A stretch of DNA of 64,000 bases from a virus (taxonomy: Duplodnaviria; Caudoviricetes), in the IMG/VR virus record IMGVR_UViG_3300046820_001270, positions 160,001-224,000 of that record; one strand, written 5' to 3'. The translations under genes and the position numbers were made by a program. The stretch's first letter is position 1. Each line of letters begins with the position of its first letter. Of the stretch, positions 3,882-40,110 are shown piece after piece. The notes beneath the pieces are model-generated. The model was given only the letters and a program-made list of their open reading frames with translations. It had not been told where the DNA came from and made no database searches.

Positions 3882-5330
3882 ATGAAGCTTCAGGTAACAG
3901 AATCACAATTAAAACTTATTGAACAACAACAGTTAAATGAACTGAAGTGGTTGGCTAATGTTCAATCACACATTGTTAAAATGGACGTTCCGTTGACACC
4001 GTCGTTGGTAAACTATATTTGGGGAAGTCAAAGAGTTACAACATTCCACGTCGGAGATGTTAACGGTATTAATGAGATTGGTGCAATGGTTGGAACGAGA
4101 AAATCTTTATCTACATTTAGATTTATGGATAAGGAATTGGTTAAAAATATGAAAGGGGTTCAAACCGAAGGTGGAATTATCTATCAAATTGTTGGAGATT
4201 TACAATTCGACTCACCAACAGATGTTATGAGTGCTCCTGATGAGACAGGTAGAAGATGGGTAAACATTAGAAGTTTCCATAATGACTTTCAAAATAAAGT
4301 CGAACTTGAATATGTAAAGTATGAGAAATTTGGAGATATGGATGAACTATCAAAATCCCCAAAAAATTTAATAGAATATTATAGACTAATGGACCAATTG
4401 GTTCGAGAAAATGCAAAAGAAATTCGTGAATATTTTACCGACATTAAAAAGAACAGAGGTGGAAGGGAAAGTTTATGGAATGAAACTGTTGTGAATAATA
4501 TTGAGGTTAAGGACATATTATGGAAAGAGGATATTGTTGCATTTTTAGATAATTGGGAAACAAAAGAACAAAGGTTAAGTGTACTTGACAAAATTGGTAT
4601 AAAATTGAGTTCTATATCCACAGGAACCGTTTATTTGGCTGATAGAGGTGGTACGTTTGGTTTTAGAGATATTAATCCAGTTAAATGGGTTGAACAAAGA
4701 GGAGGTCTAACTAATTTTAAAAAATACGTTAAAAAATTCCATGTAGATAGTGAACCAAAGAGAATACGGATCAATGAGGATAAACCAAACCCTAATAACC
4801 CACCATTTATAAAATATGGTCAGGGTTATGTTTTAATTACACCCGACAAACCTATAGATAAAACTGCGTGTGTTATTTTCGGTGGTTGGAATACTACAGA
4901 TGGTAATCACAAACATTTAGTAAAATTTATTCCTGAAAATTTACAATATAAAAAAACAATATTAATTACAGTACCTGGTGCAAGTATGGGTGATTTAAAA
5001 AGGATGTTAGGTAATACAAAAATTAAATCTATAATAGGTTTTGAGGAAGGTGGAATGAACGCATGTAAGTATGCTGGTGAATATGATGTAGTTGGGTTAA
5101 TTAACCCCGTTTTAAATAAAGATTCACAAAGATATCATATTAACGATAAAAGAGTTTTCATGTTATATGACCCAAATAAGGGAATTTTAAATGGTAATAA
5201 AATTGAACGAGGAGATAAATACCAAAAAGAATTTGCTTCAATTATGACGGGTAATGCTATACCACTTAAAGATTATAAAAGTGAAAATATGTTAACTTAT
5301 TTCCTTAATAAGTTTCAAAATAATATTTAA
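3882..5330 (+). CDS. Leader-bearing two-domain protein: ART-like N-domain + alpha/beta-hydrolase-like C-domain
   Basis: MKLQVTESQLKLIEQ leader; TFHV / SLSTF / LWNET; CVIFGG and IIGFEEGG elbow-like motif. Confidence 0.5.
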   Translation: MKLQVTESQLKLIEQQQLNELKWLANVQSHIVKMDVPLTPSLVNYIWGSQRVTTFHVGDVNGINEIGAMVGTRKSLSTFRFMDKELVKNMKGVQTEGGIIYQIVGDLQFDSPTDVMSAPDETGRRWVNIRSFHNDFQNKVELEYVKYEKFGDMDELSKSPKNLIEYYRLMDQLVRENAKEIREYFTDIKKNRGGRESLWNETVVNNIEVKDILWKEDIVAFLDNWETKEQRLSVLDKIGIKLSSISTGTVYLADRGGTFGFRDINPVKWVEQRGGLTNFKKYVKKFHVDSEPKRIRINEDKPNPNNPPFIKYGQGYVLITPDKPIDKTACVIFGGWNTTDGNHKHLVKFIPENLQYKKTILITVPGASMGDLKRMLGNTKIKSIIGFEEGGMNACKYAGEYDVVGLINPVLNKDSQRYHINDKRVFMLYDPNKGILNGNKIERGDKYQKEFASIMTGNAIPLKDYKSENMLTYFLNKFQNNI

Positions 5331-33243: not shown

Positions 33244-34115
33244 GGCCGTATGGTTTTACATACATTCACCACCACTTTGTTTTTCTAAACAAAGAAAATA
33301 AAACTCTGAGAATACAAGTTTTAACAATCGACTTAGGAACATTATTTGTTTCTTTCCCTTTCCACAACCTTTTGAGTTGTACCGATCAATGACGGTCAAT
33401 TAGATTAACCAATCCTAAAGTCATCAGATACTCTTTTATTACTTATTACTCAACAAATCTGCCGACCTGTTTCAACCTTGCGGGTTTAGAGAACTTTCTT
33501 AAAAATCATATTGGGATTGAGTCCCTTTATGGCCGTGAACCCCTCACGACTAAGTAGTCACCTGTCTCCAATGACTGACGAACACTTTTTCTTGTTATAT
33601 TTAAGTTGTTAAACCGTAATTAACAAAATTTAGTTATCCGAATTGGGAAAGTAGTGGTTCGTCACCTAGCCAAGTTATCTTTTGAACAACTCGATACTAA
33701 ACTACTCTCTGAAGTGTCCCCACCTCCATATTTTTGGTTTCCTTCGAGATTAAACCCTTGGTAGGATTTATTCAAGGACACTAACAGCACCACCTGTTTT
33801 TTGTCATACCTTCCATCTTACGATGCTACGGTTTTAAGACCACCATTGTATTGAATTACGCAATAATAAAGTCGGATAACTATACTTCTTACATTAATTC
33901 TATGGATTATTCTTATTGATGTTCCCATCTCAACCAAACAACTCGGATTGCTTGGTCATCCAACCCTTTCGCTACGGAGTTACCCTCACTACTTCAGGTT
34001 AAATGATATTCCACTTGTCTACTCGAGATCCATTTCTGAATCCGCAACTTACCCCAACCAAGGGTTTGTCACTTTATCCCACTTTCGTGGTTTATTTTAT
34101 TGACTATAGACGGCC
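33244..34115 (-). ncRNA. Large structured RNA, ~872 nt, probably GOLLD-class
   Basis: No credible ORF; own promoter (TATCTTTG 34167-34174), boxA-like site and terminator; ends pair (GGCCGT/ACGGCC); many hairpins with GNRA loops; adjacent to tRNAs. The family name is an inference. Confidence 0.7.
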
Positions 34116-36092: not shown

Positions 36093-36908
36093 TTAAATTA
36101 ACATTTGCTTAAATTCCGTATCTGAAATTAATTTTTGATCATATCCAAAAAAATAAGACTCATTTGAGGTATACTGACATACTTTAGAATATTCATTTTT
36201 AGTTACTTTATCATTATAGTTTATGTTCAAATGATGTTCCCTTTGTCCATATAAATTTTTAAAATATGAATAGAATAACATAAACATAAAATTAAATTCA
36301 GCAGGAAAATCAGACAAAAACGGAAATTCTATAGTGTCAGTATTAAATGCAGTTTTTTTTAATTTATCATTAAACCCAATATTTTCTTTAATTATGGTGT
36401 TATTATTTGATTTAATAACATCGTTTATAGATTCAATTTTGATAAATTTAAAATTATTTTTAAATTTATTTTTATATAAAAGATTTAAATCTCCGTCAAG
36501 TACCTCTTCCTTAAAAAAAGAATTATCGTAAAAAAGTAATTGTGAACTCTGAGGTATGTAATGAAAATCATCACAAAATTGTAAAAATGTCCTATAATTT
36601 ATAATATACGAATTAATGTCAGTTATTTTGGAACTCCTTAAATAATCATTAATTTTTATTTTTTCCTCATGATCATTATCAAATTCAATCATTTGTTTCA
36701 TCCAAAAATATGAAGAAAAAAAACGATCAATAGGGTCTCGTGTAAAAATTATTTTTTTATCTAAAGATGTAGTTGTGTCAAATGAAAATTCAATTTCAAT
36801 TTTAAAATGTTGAAATAAATGACTTAATGTGGTATAAATTAAAGTATGTCCATTTTTAACAGGTATAAAAAAAGAGGTATTGTATTTCTTTAAATTAAGT
36901 ATTTCCAT
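36093..36908 (-). CDS. Sulfotransferase family 2-like protein
   Basis: FIPVKNGHT; RDPIDRFFSSY; HYIPQS. Confidence 0.7.
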   Translation of the reverse strand: MEILNLKKYNTSFFIPVKNGHTLIYTTLSHLFQHFKIEIEFSFDTTTSLDKKIIFTRDPIDRFFSSYFWMKQMIEFDNDHEEKIKINDYLRSSKITDINSYIINYRTFLQFCDDFHYIPQSSQLLFYDNSFFKEEVLDGDLNLLYKNKFKNNFKFIKIESINDVIKSNNNTIIKENIGFNDKLKKTAFNTDTIEFPFLSDFPAEFNFMFMLFYSYFKNLYGQREHHLNINYNDKVTKNEYSKVCQYTSNESYFFGYDQKLISDTEFKQMLI

Positions 36909-36925
36909 TATCTAATATATATCGG

Positions 36926-36997
36926 TATTCCCGACGGGATTCGAACCCGTATTACCTCCGTGAAAGGGAGGTGACCTAACCCTTAGTCGACAAGAAC
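36926..36997 (-). tRNA. tRNA-Glu(UUC)
   Basis: Cloverleaf, anticodon loop CTTTCAC, T-loop TTCGAAT; GU-rich acceptor stem. Confidence 0.88.
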
Positions 36998-37021
36998 AAA
37001 TAATCACTCAAATGGGTATTT

Positions 37022-37118
37022 GTTATAGTATCACAATCGGTGCACTGTACTCTGGTTAATTACTCCGTCTGTACCCAACAGCTTTATGTTGGCTTATAAT
37101 TGGCTACTTTACTATAAC
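37022..37118 (-). ncRNA. Candidate small structured RNA within the tRNA array
   Basis: 9-bp closing stem GTTATAGTA/TACTATAAC; CCAACA/TGTTGG hairpin; GG-AGTAATTAA-CC loop. Confidence 0.45.
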
Positions 37119-37149
37119 TCACATTTTTATTTGTGATTAAAAAAGATCC

Positions 37150-37258
37150 CGTTTTTTTTCTACATTTAGCCCAAGCACCAGTAGGTCAGTGTTTTGGGTT
37201 TTGACGCGAGAAGTCTACAAGGTTTCCCCATTAGACCGTTACCACGGGCAAACTCTAC
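37150..37258 (-). ncRNA. Candidate structured RNA with a possible pseudoknot
   Basis: CCGT/ACGG, GTCTA/TAGAC and CCCAA/TTGGG stems; loop CTAC complementary to downstream GTAG. Confidence 0.35.
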
Positions 37259-37260
37259 AG

Positions 37261-37347
37261 CGGAAGCGTAGGGATTTGAACCCCAGATACCTTTCGGTAT
37301 GCCAGTTTTCAAGACTGGTGCAATAAACCGGACTCTGCCACACTTCC
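37261..37347 (-). tRNA. tRNA-Ser(UGA)
   Basis: Cloverleaf with long variable arm, anticodon loop CTTGAAA. Confidence 0.93.
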
Positions 37348-37348
37348 A

Positions 37349-37909
37349 TTATTTATTAGAAACAATATATCCATTATATTCCAATACTTGAATACATTTT
37401 TCTAAAAATTCTTCTACAGAAATGTCACTTTTCATTTTATTTATCGAAAAACTTATTAATCCCGCATTTTCTATAGTGTTTTCACCACCTTTAGATGCCG
37501 GTGTAATATGATCAATACTATATGATTTAGTCTCATATAAATTAATTGGTTCACCCGATAAATAACATTTAGGTTCGTTTCCTATTTTTAACAAAAAATC
37601 TCCTATATTAAAAGTAAGTTCAGGTTTAGTAATTGATATTTTTGAACCTTCCCTTCTTTGAAAATCTCTAACTTTACTGAGAACTCTTTTACCTAAATTA
37701 TTCCTATATCTAAAATCATATAGTTTTTTTTGTAAAATAAATTCAGGTTTAGATGTTCTTTTAATACTTCTATTTTTTGTTTTTTCTTTTTGGTTATCAC
37801 CCAAATAATATGAAATTGTCGATTTACTACAATTCAATTCTTTCATTATTTTATTATAGGTATAACCTTCTTTTTTTAATTCAATAATTCTATTTCCAAG
37901 CTCTGTCAT
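37349..37909 (-). mobile_element. Free-standing HNH homing endonuclease (HTH + HNH) inside the tRNA array
   Basis: CSKSTISYY HTH; CYLSG..IDHITPASKGGENTIEN...N.MK. Confidence 0.85.
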
Positions 37910-37984
37910 GATATTCTTTATATATAAATATCAGGTTCGAACTAAAAAGTTAAAAATCGAACTTCTTATTTCAAAGAACGTTTG

Positions 37985-38058
37985 CGGAACAGACGAGACT
38001 CGAACTCGCGACCCCGGCAGTGACAGTGCCGTATTCTAACCAACTGAACTACCATTCC
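37985..38058 (-). tRNA. tRNA-Asp(GUC)
   Basis: Cloverleaf, anticodon loop CTGTCAC. Confidence 0.93.
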
Positions 38059-38063
38059 TAATT

Positions 38064-38153
38064 ATCACATCAAACAGGGATTCTACTTCCCGCAGCACGA
38101 AATTGTATCTTACTTAGCCCTACGTTAGCGGTATGGGTACCTGAAGATATGAT
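38064..38153 (-). ncRNA. Candidate structured RNA
   Basis: ATCATATC/GATGTGAT and CAGG/CCTG stems; CCC-TAC/GTA-GGG hairpin; CCGC/GCGG possible pseudoknot. Confidence 0.4.
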
Positions 38154-38156
38154 TTG

Positions 38157-38232
38157 TGGGTGAGTTTGGATTCGAACCAAAGACCTAAAGTTTATGAGAC
38201 TTTTGCTCTAAAACCAGCTGAGCTACACACCC
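38157..38232 (-). tRNA. tRNA with CAU anticodon (elongator Met or lysidine Ile2)
   Basis: Cloverleaf, loop CTCATAA, no initiator features. Confidence 0.88.
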
Positions 38233-38256
38233 TATTAGTCTTTTCCTTACCTCTTA

Positions 38257-38317
38257 ATAACCACATTGCCATCCCGGTGTTACTGCCGGGTGCTTACCAC
38301 TTGCGTGGAGTGATTAT
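38257..38317 (-). ncRNA. Candidate 3-way-junction RNA (~61 nt)
   Basis: ATAATCAC/GTGGTTAT; CCAC-GCAA-GTGG; CCCGG/CCGGG. Confidence 0.5.
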
Positions 38318-38324
38318 CACGTTG

Positions 38325-38397
38325 CGCTCCCTGAGGGTCACGATCCCCCGACTTCAAAATTAACAGTTTTGCGCTCTACCAACTGAGCTAAGGAAGC
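38325..38397 (-). tRNA. tRNA-Asn(GUU) with atypical T-loop ATCGTGA
   Basis: Cloverleaf, anticodon loop CTGTTAA. Confidence 0.85.
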
Positions 38398-38483
38398 GTG
38401 TTTGATTCCAACCCAACTTAAGTTGCACCATCCGTGTCATGCACTGGTTAACAAAGTCCTCGTTGAGTTAGTTTCAAAAAGTT

Positions 38484-38666
38484 ACAGGTTTTTCGTACCA
38501 TCTATGTACATCATGTCCGAGACTGATTCATGAATCGGAGGTTACTTTTCGCTTAATGGTTAATTACTCCAACTTATAGTAACTCTACTCTCACCGTTCT
38601 ACATCTAGATTCAAACGGATAGTTGAGATTCATAGACAGTGGGGTCACACCACCGTCGTCACCTGT
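38484..38666 (-). ncRNA. Candidate multibranched RNA (~183 nt)
   Basis: ACAGGT/ACCTGT, TCTATG/CATAGA, GTTACT/AGTAAC, CCGTT/AACGG and TCCGA/TCGGA stems. Confidence 0.5.
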
Positions 38667-38668
38667 TG

Positions 38669-38741
38669 AGCCTAAGGTCAGATTCGAACTGACGACCTGC
38701 TGATTACAAATCAGCTGCTCTACCAACTGAGCTACTCAGGC
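38669..38741 (-). tRNA. tRNA-Thr(UGU)
   Basis: Cloverleaf, anticodon loop TTTGTAA. Confidence 0.95.
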
Positions 38742-38781
38742 TTATTTTCTACTATTTTATGTCAAAGAACCACTTATCTTA

Positions 38782-38812
38782 CAAAGATAATAAATAAATT
38801 CGGATATACAAA
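38782..38812 (-). promoter_or_regulatory. Internal Bacteroidota sigma70-type promoter in the tRNA array
   Basis: TTTG-N19-TATCTTTG followed by a boxA-like site. Confidence 0.75.
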
Positions 38813-38834
38813 ATTATTCTTAAATCTTTTTTTG

Positions 38835-38906
38835 AGGTCTCGGGTAGGGTCGAACTACCAACTTGAAATCCGTAGTTTCATGTGATCACCATTTCACCAC
38901 AAGACC
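38835..38906 (-). tRNA. tRNA-Arg(ACG)
   Basis: Cloverleaf, anticodon loop CTACGGA. Confidence 0.88.
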
Positions 38907-38913
38907 ATTTTAG

Positions 38914-38982
38914 TTGCGGGACCGGTAGTCGAAACCGGAAAAACACAGCTTATGAGACTGGTCGGGAACCCTCCTCCCCGCA
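38914..38982 (-). tRNA. Short-D-arm tRNA with CAU anticodon (69 nt)
   Basis: TGCGGGG/TCCCGCA acceptor stem, CTCATAA loop, CCGGT-TTCGACT-ACCGG; only 14 nt between acceptor and anticodon stems. Confidence 0.7.
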
Positions 38983-38986
38983 ATTT

Positions 38987-39060
38987 TGGATGTCCCTCGT
39001 GGATTCGAACCACAGCTAGATGGACCAAAACCACCTGTACTACCTCTATACTAAAGGACA
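38987..39060 (-). tRNA. tRNA-Gln(UUG), CCA encoded
   Basis: Cloverleaf, anticodon loop TTTTGGT. Confidence 0.92.
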
Positions 39061-39065
39061 ATATG

Positions 39066-39145
39066 TACCCAAGGTCGGACTCGAACCGACACGTCTCTCG
39101 ACACGGTTTCTAAGACCGCCGTGTATCCCATTCCACCACTCGGGT
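39066..39145 (-). tRNA. tRNA-Leu(UAG)
   Basis: Cloverleaf with variable arm, anticodon loop CTTAGAA. Confidence 0.92.
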
Positions 39146-39152
39146 ATTGTTG

Positions 39153-39224
39153 CACCCATGTAAGGACTCGAACCTTCATCTTCGGTTTTGGAGACCGACG
39201 TTCTACCAATTGAACTACACAGAT
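39153..39224 (-). tRNA. tRNA-Trp(CCA)
   Basis: Cloverleaf, anticodon loop CTCCAAA; wobble-rich acceptor stem. Confidence 0.88.
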
Positions 39225-39231
39225 ATGTTTG

Positions 39232-39307
39232 TCTAGATGGCTGGATTCGAACCAACGTGTTCTGCTTTCCAAAAGCAGCGAGAAAAGCCGGACTCCTCTA
39301 CATCTAG
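39232..39307 (-). tRNA. tRNA-Pro(UGG)
   Basis: Cloverleaf, anticodon loop TTTGGAA, C1-G72/A73. Confidence 0.92.
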
Positions 39308-39316
39308 ATATAAAAC

Positions 39317-39351
39317 AAAAAACCCCGAGATTTTTAAGTCTCAGGGTTTTT
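39317..39351 (-). terminator. Intrinsic terminator (putative attenuator) immediately before the first tRNA
   Basis: AAAAACCCTGAGA-CTTAAAAA-TCTCGGGGTTTTTT. Confidence 0.8.
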
Positions 39352-39374
39352 AATATTATTAGTTAAACTTACAT

Positions 39375-39470
39375 TTAACCGTGATTAATATCTCCGAGAC
39401 ATATAGACATAGGACGATCATTCCAATTTTGTTGGTTCATCGGCGACGTTGTATATAGGTTTTGTCTCAT
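39375..39470 (-). CDS. Putative leader peptide MRQNLYTTSPMNQQNWNDRPMSICLGDINHG (31 aa)
   Basis: Lies between promoter and terminator; A-rich initiation region; contains GTCTCGG, complementary to the terminator 5' arm. Confidence 0.6.
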   Translation of the reverse strand: MRQNLYTTSPMNQQNWNDRPMSICLGDINHG

Positions 39471-39500
39471 TGAATTTTGTTTAATTTTTGTTTCTTTTTA

Positions 39501-39531
39501 CAAAGATACATATAAATATATACATAAACAA
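39501..39531 (-). promoter_or_regulatory. Promoter of the leader/tRNA operon
   Basis: TTG-N20-TATCTTTG with an overlapping TATTTATA (39511-39518). Confidence 0.7.
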
Positions 39532-39594
39532 TAAAAGGTTAAAATATTTTATAATCAATTATGAATCAATCGATAAGAACTGATATTTATCAAT

Positions 39595-40110
39595 ATGACA
39601 AAAATAAAGGGACTCTCTCTCCTTTTATGTACTTTGTTCTTGGCATTCTCTTCATTTGCTCAGGACACGCAAAAAGTGTACATATCTGGCGTTGAGAATA
39701 AAATCAAGATTGGTCGTATGACATCTAACCGAAACTTGGCTTTCGGTGTTAAAAACATTTTCGAAGAAATTTTACAGGATAAGGATTTCACAATCGTAGA
39801 GGTACGTAGTGAGGCTGACGTTTTATTAAACGTTGATTTATTATTTTTTGACGTTAATAAAACTAAAAGAAACGTTTCAGTATTTCATTCTAATGTTGAA
39901 GAAACATTGGTAATAATGAAAGGTACTATCACCGATAAATCAGGTAAAAAATTAAAAGAGGTGGTGGCCGAAGAATCAAGTTCAGAAATTTCTACGTCAA
40001 CGTTAATCACTGACGAAGGAAGTGGACAAATAAACCAACAGGCATTGTCTTCAGCAATTAAGAAGACATGTGTTTCACTTGTAGATAAAATATTTTTAAA
40101 TAAGAAATGA
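39595..40110 (+). CDS. Secreted CsgG/LpoB-like fold protein
   Basis: Signal peptide ending FAQ; alpha/beta pattern ending ALSSAIKKTC. Confidence 0.5.
   Translation: MTKIKGLSLLLCTLFLAFSSFAQDTQKVYISGVENKIKIGRMTSNRNLAFGVKNIFEEILQDKDFTIVEVRSEADVLLNVDLLFFDVNKTKRNVSVFHSNVEETLVIMKGTITDKSGKKLKEVVAEESSSEISTSTLITDEGSGQINQQALSSAIKKTCVSLVDKIFLNKK

Follow-up and report, generated by a model that had tools for sequence, protein, structure and literature searches.

A putative leader-peptide attenuator in front of a phage tRNA array

Leader region and tRNA array

The window analysed here comprises 64,000 nucleotides of DNA from a virus of the Caudoviricetes (IMG/VR record IMGVR_UViG_3300046820_001270, positions 160,001 to 224,000). 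On its minus strand a promoter, a short open reading frame (ORF) and a transcription terminator precede a tRNA array, and this leader region is treated here as a candidate attenuator of the array. Promoter, ORF, terminator and first tRNA were located where an earlier note, made from the sequence alone, had placed them (Table 1); a promoter before tRNA-Thr, inside the array, had been overlooked in that first reading. Eleven tRNAs were called with ARAGORN and Rfam: Pro, Trp, Leu-UAG, Gln, Arg-ACG, Thr, Asn, Met/CAU, Asp, Ser-UGA and Glu. The TAnnTTTG box of the leader promoter was read by eye, corresponds to the consensus known for Bacteroides and Flavobacterium promoters and is kept in all homologous leaders. 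A scan for sigma-70 promoters was rejected, its sites being no commoner than in shuffles and the model being unsuited to Bacteroidota promoters. The start codon of the leader ORF is located 30 nt downstream of the -7 box, behind an A-rich region. Translation initiation free of Shine-Dalgarno sequences is established in Bacteroidota, and the A-rich unstructured leader would fit this type of initiation. The TAnnTTTG boxes suggest a host among the Bacteroidota, and so do signal peptides with an SSFAQ end. The window seems to derive from a large lake-water phage; its DNA is present in many lake metagenomes, and viral contigs with related sequences reach 298 kb.

The leader occupies a divergent intergenic region (39308-39594), thus no upstream minus-strand gene needs the terminator. 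tRNA-Pro(UGG) starts at 39307, ~10 nt past the terminator. This gap leaves no room for a promoter, therefore block 1 of the array could be transcribed only by terminator read-through. Between blocks 1 and 2 no terminator was found in a terminator scan, thus read-through from the leader promoter probably extends into block 2.

Table 1. Features of the leader region and the tRNA array, in positions of the window
Feature	Position	Strand	Description and basis
Bacteroidota-type promoter	39501..39534	-	-33 TTG inside 39534-39523; -7 box TATCTTTG (TAnnTTTG) at 39508-39501; ~20 nt apart
5' untranslated leader, A-rich	39471..39500	-	sequence; unpaired in predicted fold
Leader ORF	39375..39470	-	31 codons and stop, peptide MRQNLYTTSPMNQQNWNDRPMSICLGDINHG; ORF call
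Segment 1	39463..39470	-	AUGAGACA, start codon and codons 2-3; predicted pairing with segment 2
Sensing codons 4-23	39402..39461	-	N L Y T T S P M N Q Q N W N D R P M S I
Segment 2	39394..39400	-	GUCUCGG, codons 24-26; partner is segment 1 or segment 3 (antiterminator)
Small hairpin holding the stop codon UAA	39362..39379	-	consensus-fold helix, enclosed by the antiterminator
Intrinsic terminator with U-tract	39312..39351	-	hairpin 39351-39318; 13 pairs, 5 of them G-C
Segment 3	39344-39338	-	CUGAGAC, in the terminator 5' arm
Segment 4	39330-39318	-	terminator 3' arm
tRNA block 1	38834..39307	-	Pro-UGG, Trp-CCA, Leu-UAG, Gln-UUG, Arg-ACG; ARAGORN, Rfam
Internal promoter before tRNA-Thr	38782..38815	-	-7 box TATCTTTG at 38789-38782
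tRNA block 2	36924..38741	-	Thr, Asn, Met/CAU, Asp, HNH endonuclease ORF, Ser-UGA, Glu

Leader family and alternative RNA pairings

Homologous leaders were collected by pattern and neighbour-gene searches of viral contigs. Sixteen distinct homologs were obtained from lake viral contigs, all with the promoter box, an A-rich 5' leader, the codons ATG AGA CAA, a stop-codon hairpin and a terminator followed by a tRNA. Their leader frame is open over 30-32 codons and differs in length by whole codons; the other two frames contain 1-5 stops each. Conservation is confined to the start region and codons 21-26, which are the RNA pairing segments, and includes third codon positions. Codons 4-20 vary freely and non-synonymously, and the sensing codons 4-23 are the most variable part of the family. 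A variable middle between conserved pairing ends is the pattern expected of a translated leader with a functionless peptide. The earlier note had made its reading depend on equivalent leaders before the arrays of related phages and on a conserved ORF. The former exist in the 16 homologs, and non-homologous ones in phages phi4:1 and phiCbK (see below); the latter is apparent from the frame that is kept open while its middle codons change non-synonymously.

The ends of the peptide are conserved in the 16 homologs as well, with an MRQ start and MSICLDDTDVG or a similar sequence C-terminally, and the phi4:1 and phiCbK annotations list such ORFs as hypothetical proteins. Both facts would suit a functional small phage peptide with its own terminator, the tRNAs arising by constitutive leakage or from an unrecognised promoter without any sensing. 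We regard this as very unlikely. The conserved ends coincide with RNA segments 1 and 2 down to the third codon positions, and in the middle the amino-acid replacements accompany changes of the array. In phi4:1 and phiCbK the place of the peptide is taken by unrelated ones, each of which fits the tRNA block behind it, and the gap of ~10 nt between terminator and tRNA-Pro is too short for a promoter.

In the relatives L082-L085, with a neighbouring protein 88-99 % identical and compared over 38822-39520 of the window, the promoter, leader, terminator and tRNAs Pro-Trp-Leu-Gln-Arg are absent, and the arrays begin at a promoter matching the internal one before tRNA-Thr of the window. Leader and block 1 thus behave like an indel cassette of ~0.7 kb between two similar promoters. 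Members of another phage group (L003, L005, L006), found via the tRNA-Pro pattern, show the order gene-terminator-promoter-tRNA without a leader, therefore the leader design is not universal among phage arrays. The left border of the tRNA array is an insertion hot spot. An extra gene of ~0.9 kb is present in some relatives (L083, L084, L089) between the divergent neighbour gene and the array, and L089 carries an additional small gene upstream of the leader promoter.

The earlier note had recognized that GTCTCGG in codons 24-26 is complementary to CTGAGAC in the terminator 5' arm and repeats part of the 3' arm, and had proposed competing 2:3 and 3:4 pairings. The complementarity was confirmed, with one G.U pair, and so was the repeat. 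In nine aligned leaders 63/63 cells of the antiterminator 2:3 were paired, which was equalled by 2 of 500 shuffles. Two pairs change on both sides, one from G-C to A-U and another among GC, GU and AU. As a control, shifting the partner by 1-3 columns left 4-56 % pairing. In L089 an identical G-to-A change was present in segments 2 and 4, which are both partners of the same U in segment 3. The covariation of the antiterminator supports the 2:3 versus 3:4 layout, and a predicted helix 1:2 would complete it to 1:2 / 2:3 / 3:4. This helix is formed by AUGAGACA at the start codon with UGUCUCG (RNAalifold columns 45-55 with 120-130). Segment 1 is invariant in 9/9 aligned leaders, and the helix appears in ribosome-free folds.

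The window leader folds with -43.8 kcal/mol (z=-5.0), and none of 200 shuffles folded as well. The consensus fold of the nine leaders (RNAalifold) contains four helices, namely 1:2, the stop-codon hairpin, the terminator and the antiterminator 2:3. The terminator is conserved across the leader family, with two covarying pairs in the consensus fold. The stop-codon hairpin (RNAalifold columns 141-146 with 156-161) is kept in 9/9 leaders with varying length and may act as a pause or spacer element. Staged folding predicted 1:2 and the terminator for an RNA without ribosome. With the ribosome halted at codons 5-15 the 2:3 antiterminator (-14.5 to -19.8 kcal/mol) was predicted to exist already before synthesis of segment 4, and with the ribosome at the stop codon the terminator was predicted. 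A fold this strong and conserved could also serve at the RNA level only, with an untranslated ORF and hairpins for processing or stability, e.g., as an RNase site for generating the tRNA-Pro 5' end or within a stable small RNA. A terminator immediately 5' of a tRNA that needs RNase P processing anyway would agree with such a role. Against it stand the open frame of 30-32 codons with whole-codon indels in 16 variants, the 1-5 stops of the other frames, a codon match that is specific for the frame (18/20 versus 10/19 and 9/19), and the lack of any Rfam family at threshold. A role of the RNA alone is thus highly improbable.

Codon content of the leaders and tRNA content of the arrays

In the leader ORF of the window, 18 of the 20 codons at positions 4-23 are readable by array tRNAs, compared to a mean of 8.9 (P=6.5e-5) in random 20-codon windows from the phage's own long ORFs; the tRNA set was that of the 64-kb window. 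The leader samples 10 of the 11 array tRNAs (P=2e-4), and no random window reached both values together. The earlier note would have given up its reading for a codon match no better than in shuffled ORFs, but 20,000 stop-free mononucleotide shuffles of the leader bases yielded a mean match of 9.8 and a maximum of 17. The other two frames of the leader had 10/19 and 9/19 matched codons. As stated in the earlier note, tRNAs for Lys, Phe, Val and Ala are missing in the array and codons for these amino acids in the leader. AGA (codon 2) has no cognate tRNA in the array; it belongs to the invariant pairing segment 1 and not to the sensing codons, and is therefore no counter-example. For ATA the earlier note had considered a reading by an Ile2-type CAU tRNA. 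One CAU tRNA was called by ARAGORN and Rfam, but for a second one that might serve ATA only a degenerate element was found. This element (38907-38986, minus strand) lies in the 81-nt spacer between tRNA-Gln and tRNA-Arg and has an acceptor-like stem, a T-arm, a CUCAUAA loop (CAU) and a degenerate D-arm. It was called neither by ARAGORN at default settings nor by Rfam and could represent a tRNA(CAU) that has decayed or is atypical, possibly of the Ile2 type, which would bear on the reading of ATA.

Relatives with homologous leaders form two clades with different arrays. Pro-first arrays start with Pro, followed by variable combinations of Asn, Trp, Leu and Gln. Ala-first arrays have the order Ala-Ile-Phe-Lys-(Glu)-Trp and then Arg-Cys-His-Met, their Ala tRNA being detected only by Rfam or by ARAGORN at low threshold. 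The leaders differ correspondingly: P, N and Q were present in 9/9 Pro-first leaders and A, C and K in 0/9, whereas A, C, K, F, I, H, R and W were present in 7/7 Ala-first leaders and P in 0/7. With its own array the L087 leader agrees in 21/21 codons, compared to 7-13 with Pro-first arrays, and the 18/20 matches of the window leader fall to 7 with the L089 array. The presence or absence of codon and tRNA agreed in 258 of 312 cells (13 leaders x 24 anticodons; odds ratio ~23). Permutation of the arrays among the members gave 205 +/- 14 concordant cells, and 0 of 20,000 permutations reached 258. The codon content thus tracks the array content, as the earlier note had asked of related phages, but only loosely inside one clade (P=0.045). 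Among the Pro-first members tracking is perfect for Leu-UAG/CUA and Arg-ACG/CGU, but not for Trp, His, Phe and Thr.

Leaders without homology to that of the window were present in the Cellulophaga phage phi4:1, in three modules, each with a promoter, a short ORF, a terminator and a block of tRNAs. The near-identical phage phi17:2 adds one synonymous Gln change only. The leader MKIQRLHLQELEQP... precedes tRNAs for Pro, Glu, Gln, His, Leu, Leu and Arg, the leader ...TKTGITVIDKTKGARA... those for Ala, Lys, Ile, Gly, Met, Asp, Thr, Val, Arg-UCU and Met, and the leader ...NYCTYNNSNWSFSY... those for Tyr, Ser, Asn, Trp and Phe. Their own blocks match 11/15, 15/19 and 10/17 codons, respectively, the other blocks 0-4; a sixth, pseudo tRNA of block 3 (Cys, Ala or Gln possible) was left uncounted. 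The match extends to the codon level, with CGT accompanying Arg-ACG and AGA accompanying Arg-UCU. Each leader ORF contains a segment complementary to the 5' arm of its own terminator. The anti-antiterminator 1:2, present in the predicted minimum-energy and consensus folds of the window family, has no clear equivalent in modules 2 and 3. One of the phi4:1 leaders is the annotated gp075. The 16-mer of the phi4:1 promoter was tried as a search probe and discarded: it hit 67 mostly unrelated loci, none with a terminator directly before a tRNA.

In the Caulobacter phage phiCbK an annotated ORF, gp083, and an annotated terminator precede tRNAs for Pro, Pro, Lys, Lys, Leu (three), Ala, Ser and Ser. 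Of its 44 codons 29 match this block (background 13.6, P<1e-5), all 10 of 10 tRNA species are sampled, and the other three blocks match 0-1 codons. Further annotated rho-independent terminators are located at 821-867 and 4166-4203 of the phiCbK sequence L110. One of them stands directly before tRNA-Glu/Asp and another ~130 nt before a Phe-Val-Ile block. A 20-aa ORF before Glu/Asp contains E and D; the module tested was that of gp083 only.

AT-rich intergenic DNA often contains short ORFs and 7-mer complementarities, and an ORF, a complementarity and a codon match may coincide by chance. The antiterminator-pairing, codon-match, concordance and shuffle tests as well as the recurrence in three phage lineages reject a coincidence, the probability of which we consider practically negligible. 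More weight is due to a general switch for translation capacity or timing. Such an attenuator would report overall ribosome or elongation activity, e.g., early versus late infection or host shut-off, and not the supply of specific tRNAs, and its codons would resemble the array by a shared phage codon preference. Phage tRNAs and phage genes are expected to have a common codon preference. The few codons per tRNA, without runs, and the weak fine-scale tracking in the Pro-first clade also favour this explanation. However, the leader strongly exceeds a background taken from genes of the phage itself, and the residues that distinguish the two leader clades are exactly those with different tRNAs in the arrays. 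Within one genome the leaders of phi4:1 and phiCbK match their own block and are depleted for other blocks (0-4 codons), thus shared codon preference is not the cause. A switch reporting translation capacity in general is therefore unlikely.

Proposed control of the tRNA array, its setting and known attenuators

It is quite probable, judged from the sequence evidence, that the element is a ribosome-mediated (leader-peptide) transcription attenuator gating the phage tRNA array. This reading builds on the observed anatomy and its conservation, on covarying pairings and on a codon match that tracks the arrays. We infer from these that the ORF is translated, that the terminator ends transcription and with which efficiency, how the kinetic competition proceeds, in which direction the circuit responds and what triggers it in nature. 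Transcription would start at the Bacteroidota-type promoter, and a ribosome would load on the A-rich leader and translate the 31-codon ORF, in which codons 4-23 would be a sample of the codons decoded by the tRNAs encoded downstream. With fast decoding the ribosome would cover segment 2 or reside at the stop codon by the time the terminator is synthesized by RNA polymerase. The terminator would then form ~10 nt before tRNA-Pro, and the array would be off. Slow decoding of any sampled codon, due to scarce charged tRNA, would stall the ribosome upstream of segment 2. Segment 2 could then pair with CUGAGAC, the terminator would be blocked and the tRNA genes would be transcribed. Without translation, segment 2 would pair with the start region AUGAGACA and the terminator would form. 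Phage tRNAs would relieve the stall, and the circuit would thus be a self-limiting negative-feedback supply control for the whole tRNA set. Cleavage or uncharging of host tRNAs, which the earlier note had put forward as the signal, is one possible trigger only. The sensor cannot tell host from phage tRNAs, nor tRNA loss from amino-acid starvation.

Several observations weigh against an attenuator of this kind. The 1:2 helix is invariant on both sides and hence beyond the reach of covariation. With its 7 bp the antiterminator is far less stable than the terminator, over which it would have to prevail by kinetics. The leader retains TAT without a tRNA-Tyr, and ATA is unmatched. Each tRNA is sampled by 1-4 scattered codons, and tandem runs are absent; modelling has attributed the sensitivity of classical attenuators to tandem codon runs (PMC1183508). 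Fine-scale tracking is loose, with the within-clade permutation at the P value given above, and L002 and L010 retain codons for Trp, Thr, His and Phe although their available sequence lacks the corresponding tRNAs. Contigs from RNA libraries only graze the leader and the junction of terminator and tRNA-Pro, at a depth of 2-6 and possibly as DNA carry-over, and the RNA-library reads at the region are mostly cross-matches to conserved tRNA parts. A look for RNA runs of phi4:1 returned none. Block 2 has its own promoter, thus the attenuator is not the sole control of the codons it samples.

For phages in general a wider reading seems likely, which we hold with somewhat less confidence than that of the single element. 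Codon-matched leader-peptide attenuators would be a widespread, hitherto undescribed means by which phages adjust their tRNA supply, and a given block would be on only when ribosomes lack the tRNAs it encodes. As a part of this joint reading, phages of Bacteroidota and those of Alphaproteobacteria would have acquired the design separately, or their leaders would have diverged too far to be recognized as related, and leader and block would be acquired, lost or exchanged as one cassette.

Other elements accompany the array on the minus strand. An ORF of 186 aa (37349-37909) between tRNA-Asp and tRNA-Ser, which combines an HNH endonuclease domain (Pfam HNH_4, E=1.5e-6) with a helix-turn-helix at its N-terminus, probably is a homing endonuclease, and different insertions occur in relatives at comparable gaps. 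A non-coding spacer of 270 nt between tRNA-Thr and tRNA-Asn (38398-38667) is kept in L085 and seems to be richer in G+C than its flanks; it had no Rfam match and its fold was no better than that of shuffles (z=-1.4). A full-length GOLLD RNA (RF02032, 298 bits, cut-off 150) is located at 33303-33709, ~3 kb downstream of the array; GOLLD RNAs are known from phages, often near tRNAs. The same strand also carries a phage tmRNA (31045-31443; Rfam 80.7 bits; ARAGORN tag peptide DNVYNTMEIAGILATSKVAA). The tmRNA, the GOLLD RNA and the tRNA array form a translation-related RNA island.

The mechanism of trp and his attenuation is known; new are tRNAs as the regulated genes and the sampling of ~10 different tRNAs. 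To our knowledge, all described leader-peptide attenuators regulate amino-acid biosynthesis or synthetase genes. A full-text literature search yielded no description of leader-peptide control of tRNA genes, in agreement with the earlier note, whose author knew of no multi-tRNA attenuator of a tRNA operon. Attenuators have reportedly been predicted by comparative genomics in other phyla, including Bacteroidetes/Chlorobi. With trpL, hisL, leuL, pheL and thrL of E. coli/Salmonella the window leader shares a promoter-proximal short ORF, putative regulatory codons and an intrinsic terminator before the regulated genes, as well as mutually exclusive 2:3 and 3:4 pairings, a predicted 1:2 pairing and the position of the ribosome as the proposed signal. 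It shares no sequence or Rfam membership with the leaders of amino-acid operons: a scan of 36800-39650 gave 25.4 bits for His_leader (cut-off 49) and 24.6 bits for Thr_leader (cut-off 55), matches that rest on the terminator hairpin. In contrast to these operons, the leader is encoded by a phage, the regulated genes are tRNA genes and not biosynthetic enzymes, and ~10 tRNAs are represented by 1-4 scattered codons each instead of one codon in a run. The product, tRNA, is what the sensor consumes, so the loop would be direct.

Leaders with mixed regulatory codons for several amino acids are found in ilvGMEDA (Ile/Val/Leu) and thr (Thr/Ile), however for enzymes and for two or three amino acids with many codons each; here at least 10 tRNA species are sampled and tRNAs would be regulated. 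The pheST operon of E. coli, with its pheM leader, also places a component of the translation apparatus under leader-peptide attenuation with the supply of charged tRNA as signal, but it encodes a synthetase in a cellular genome and senses a single amino acid via runs of Phe codons, while the window holds tRNA genes of a phage. T-box riboswitches equally report the status of tRNA to translation-related genes by a decision between terminator and antiterminator. In contrast to the window leader, with its frame-specific signal, they bind one uncharged tRNA directly and independently of the ribosome. No specifier architecture was detected here, and in 36800-39650 no T-box covariance model matched even at E up to 5. 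Phage tRNA arrays are seen as a compensation for codon-usage mismatch, for the decay of host tRNAs or for anticodon nucleases. Such work supplies a biological reason for tRNAs on demand and is not known to describe leader-peptide control.

Phage tRNA genes are usually treated as constitutive helpers for codon bias or as a counter to tRNA-cleaving defences. If the proposed attenuation is true, tRNA production is driven by demand and limits itself, and a textbook mechanism is extended to a new class of genes with ~10 signals at once. Each leader would list the decoding steps monitored by the phage, hence the host tRNAs that may become limiting. The leaders would then be built-in reporters of host tRNAs that are limiting in infection by codon mismatch, host shut-off or anticodon-nuclease defence. 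Attenuation would also explain many small hypothetical ORFs and the puzzling terminators directly before phage tRNAs; both are present in phiCbK, the ORFs in phi4:1. With phi4:1 on Cellulophaga baltica and phiCbK on Caulobacter, such leaders exist in cultivable systems, and they would provide a compact natural part that senses translation elongation on chosen codons.

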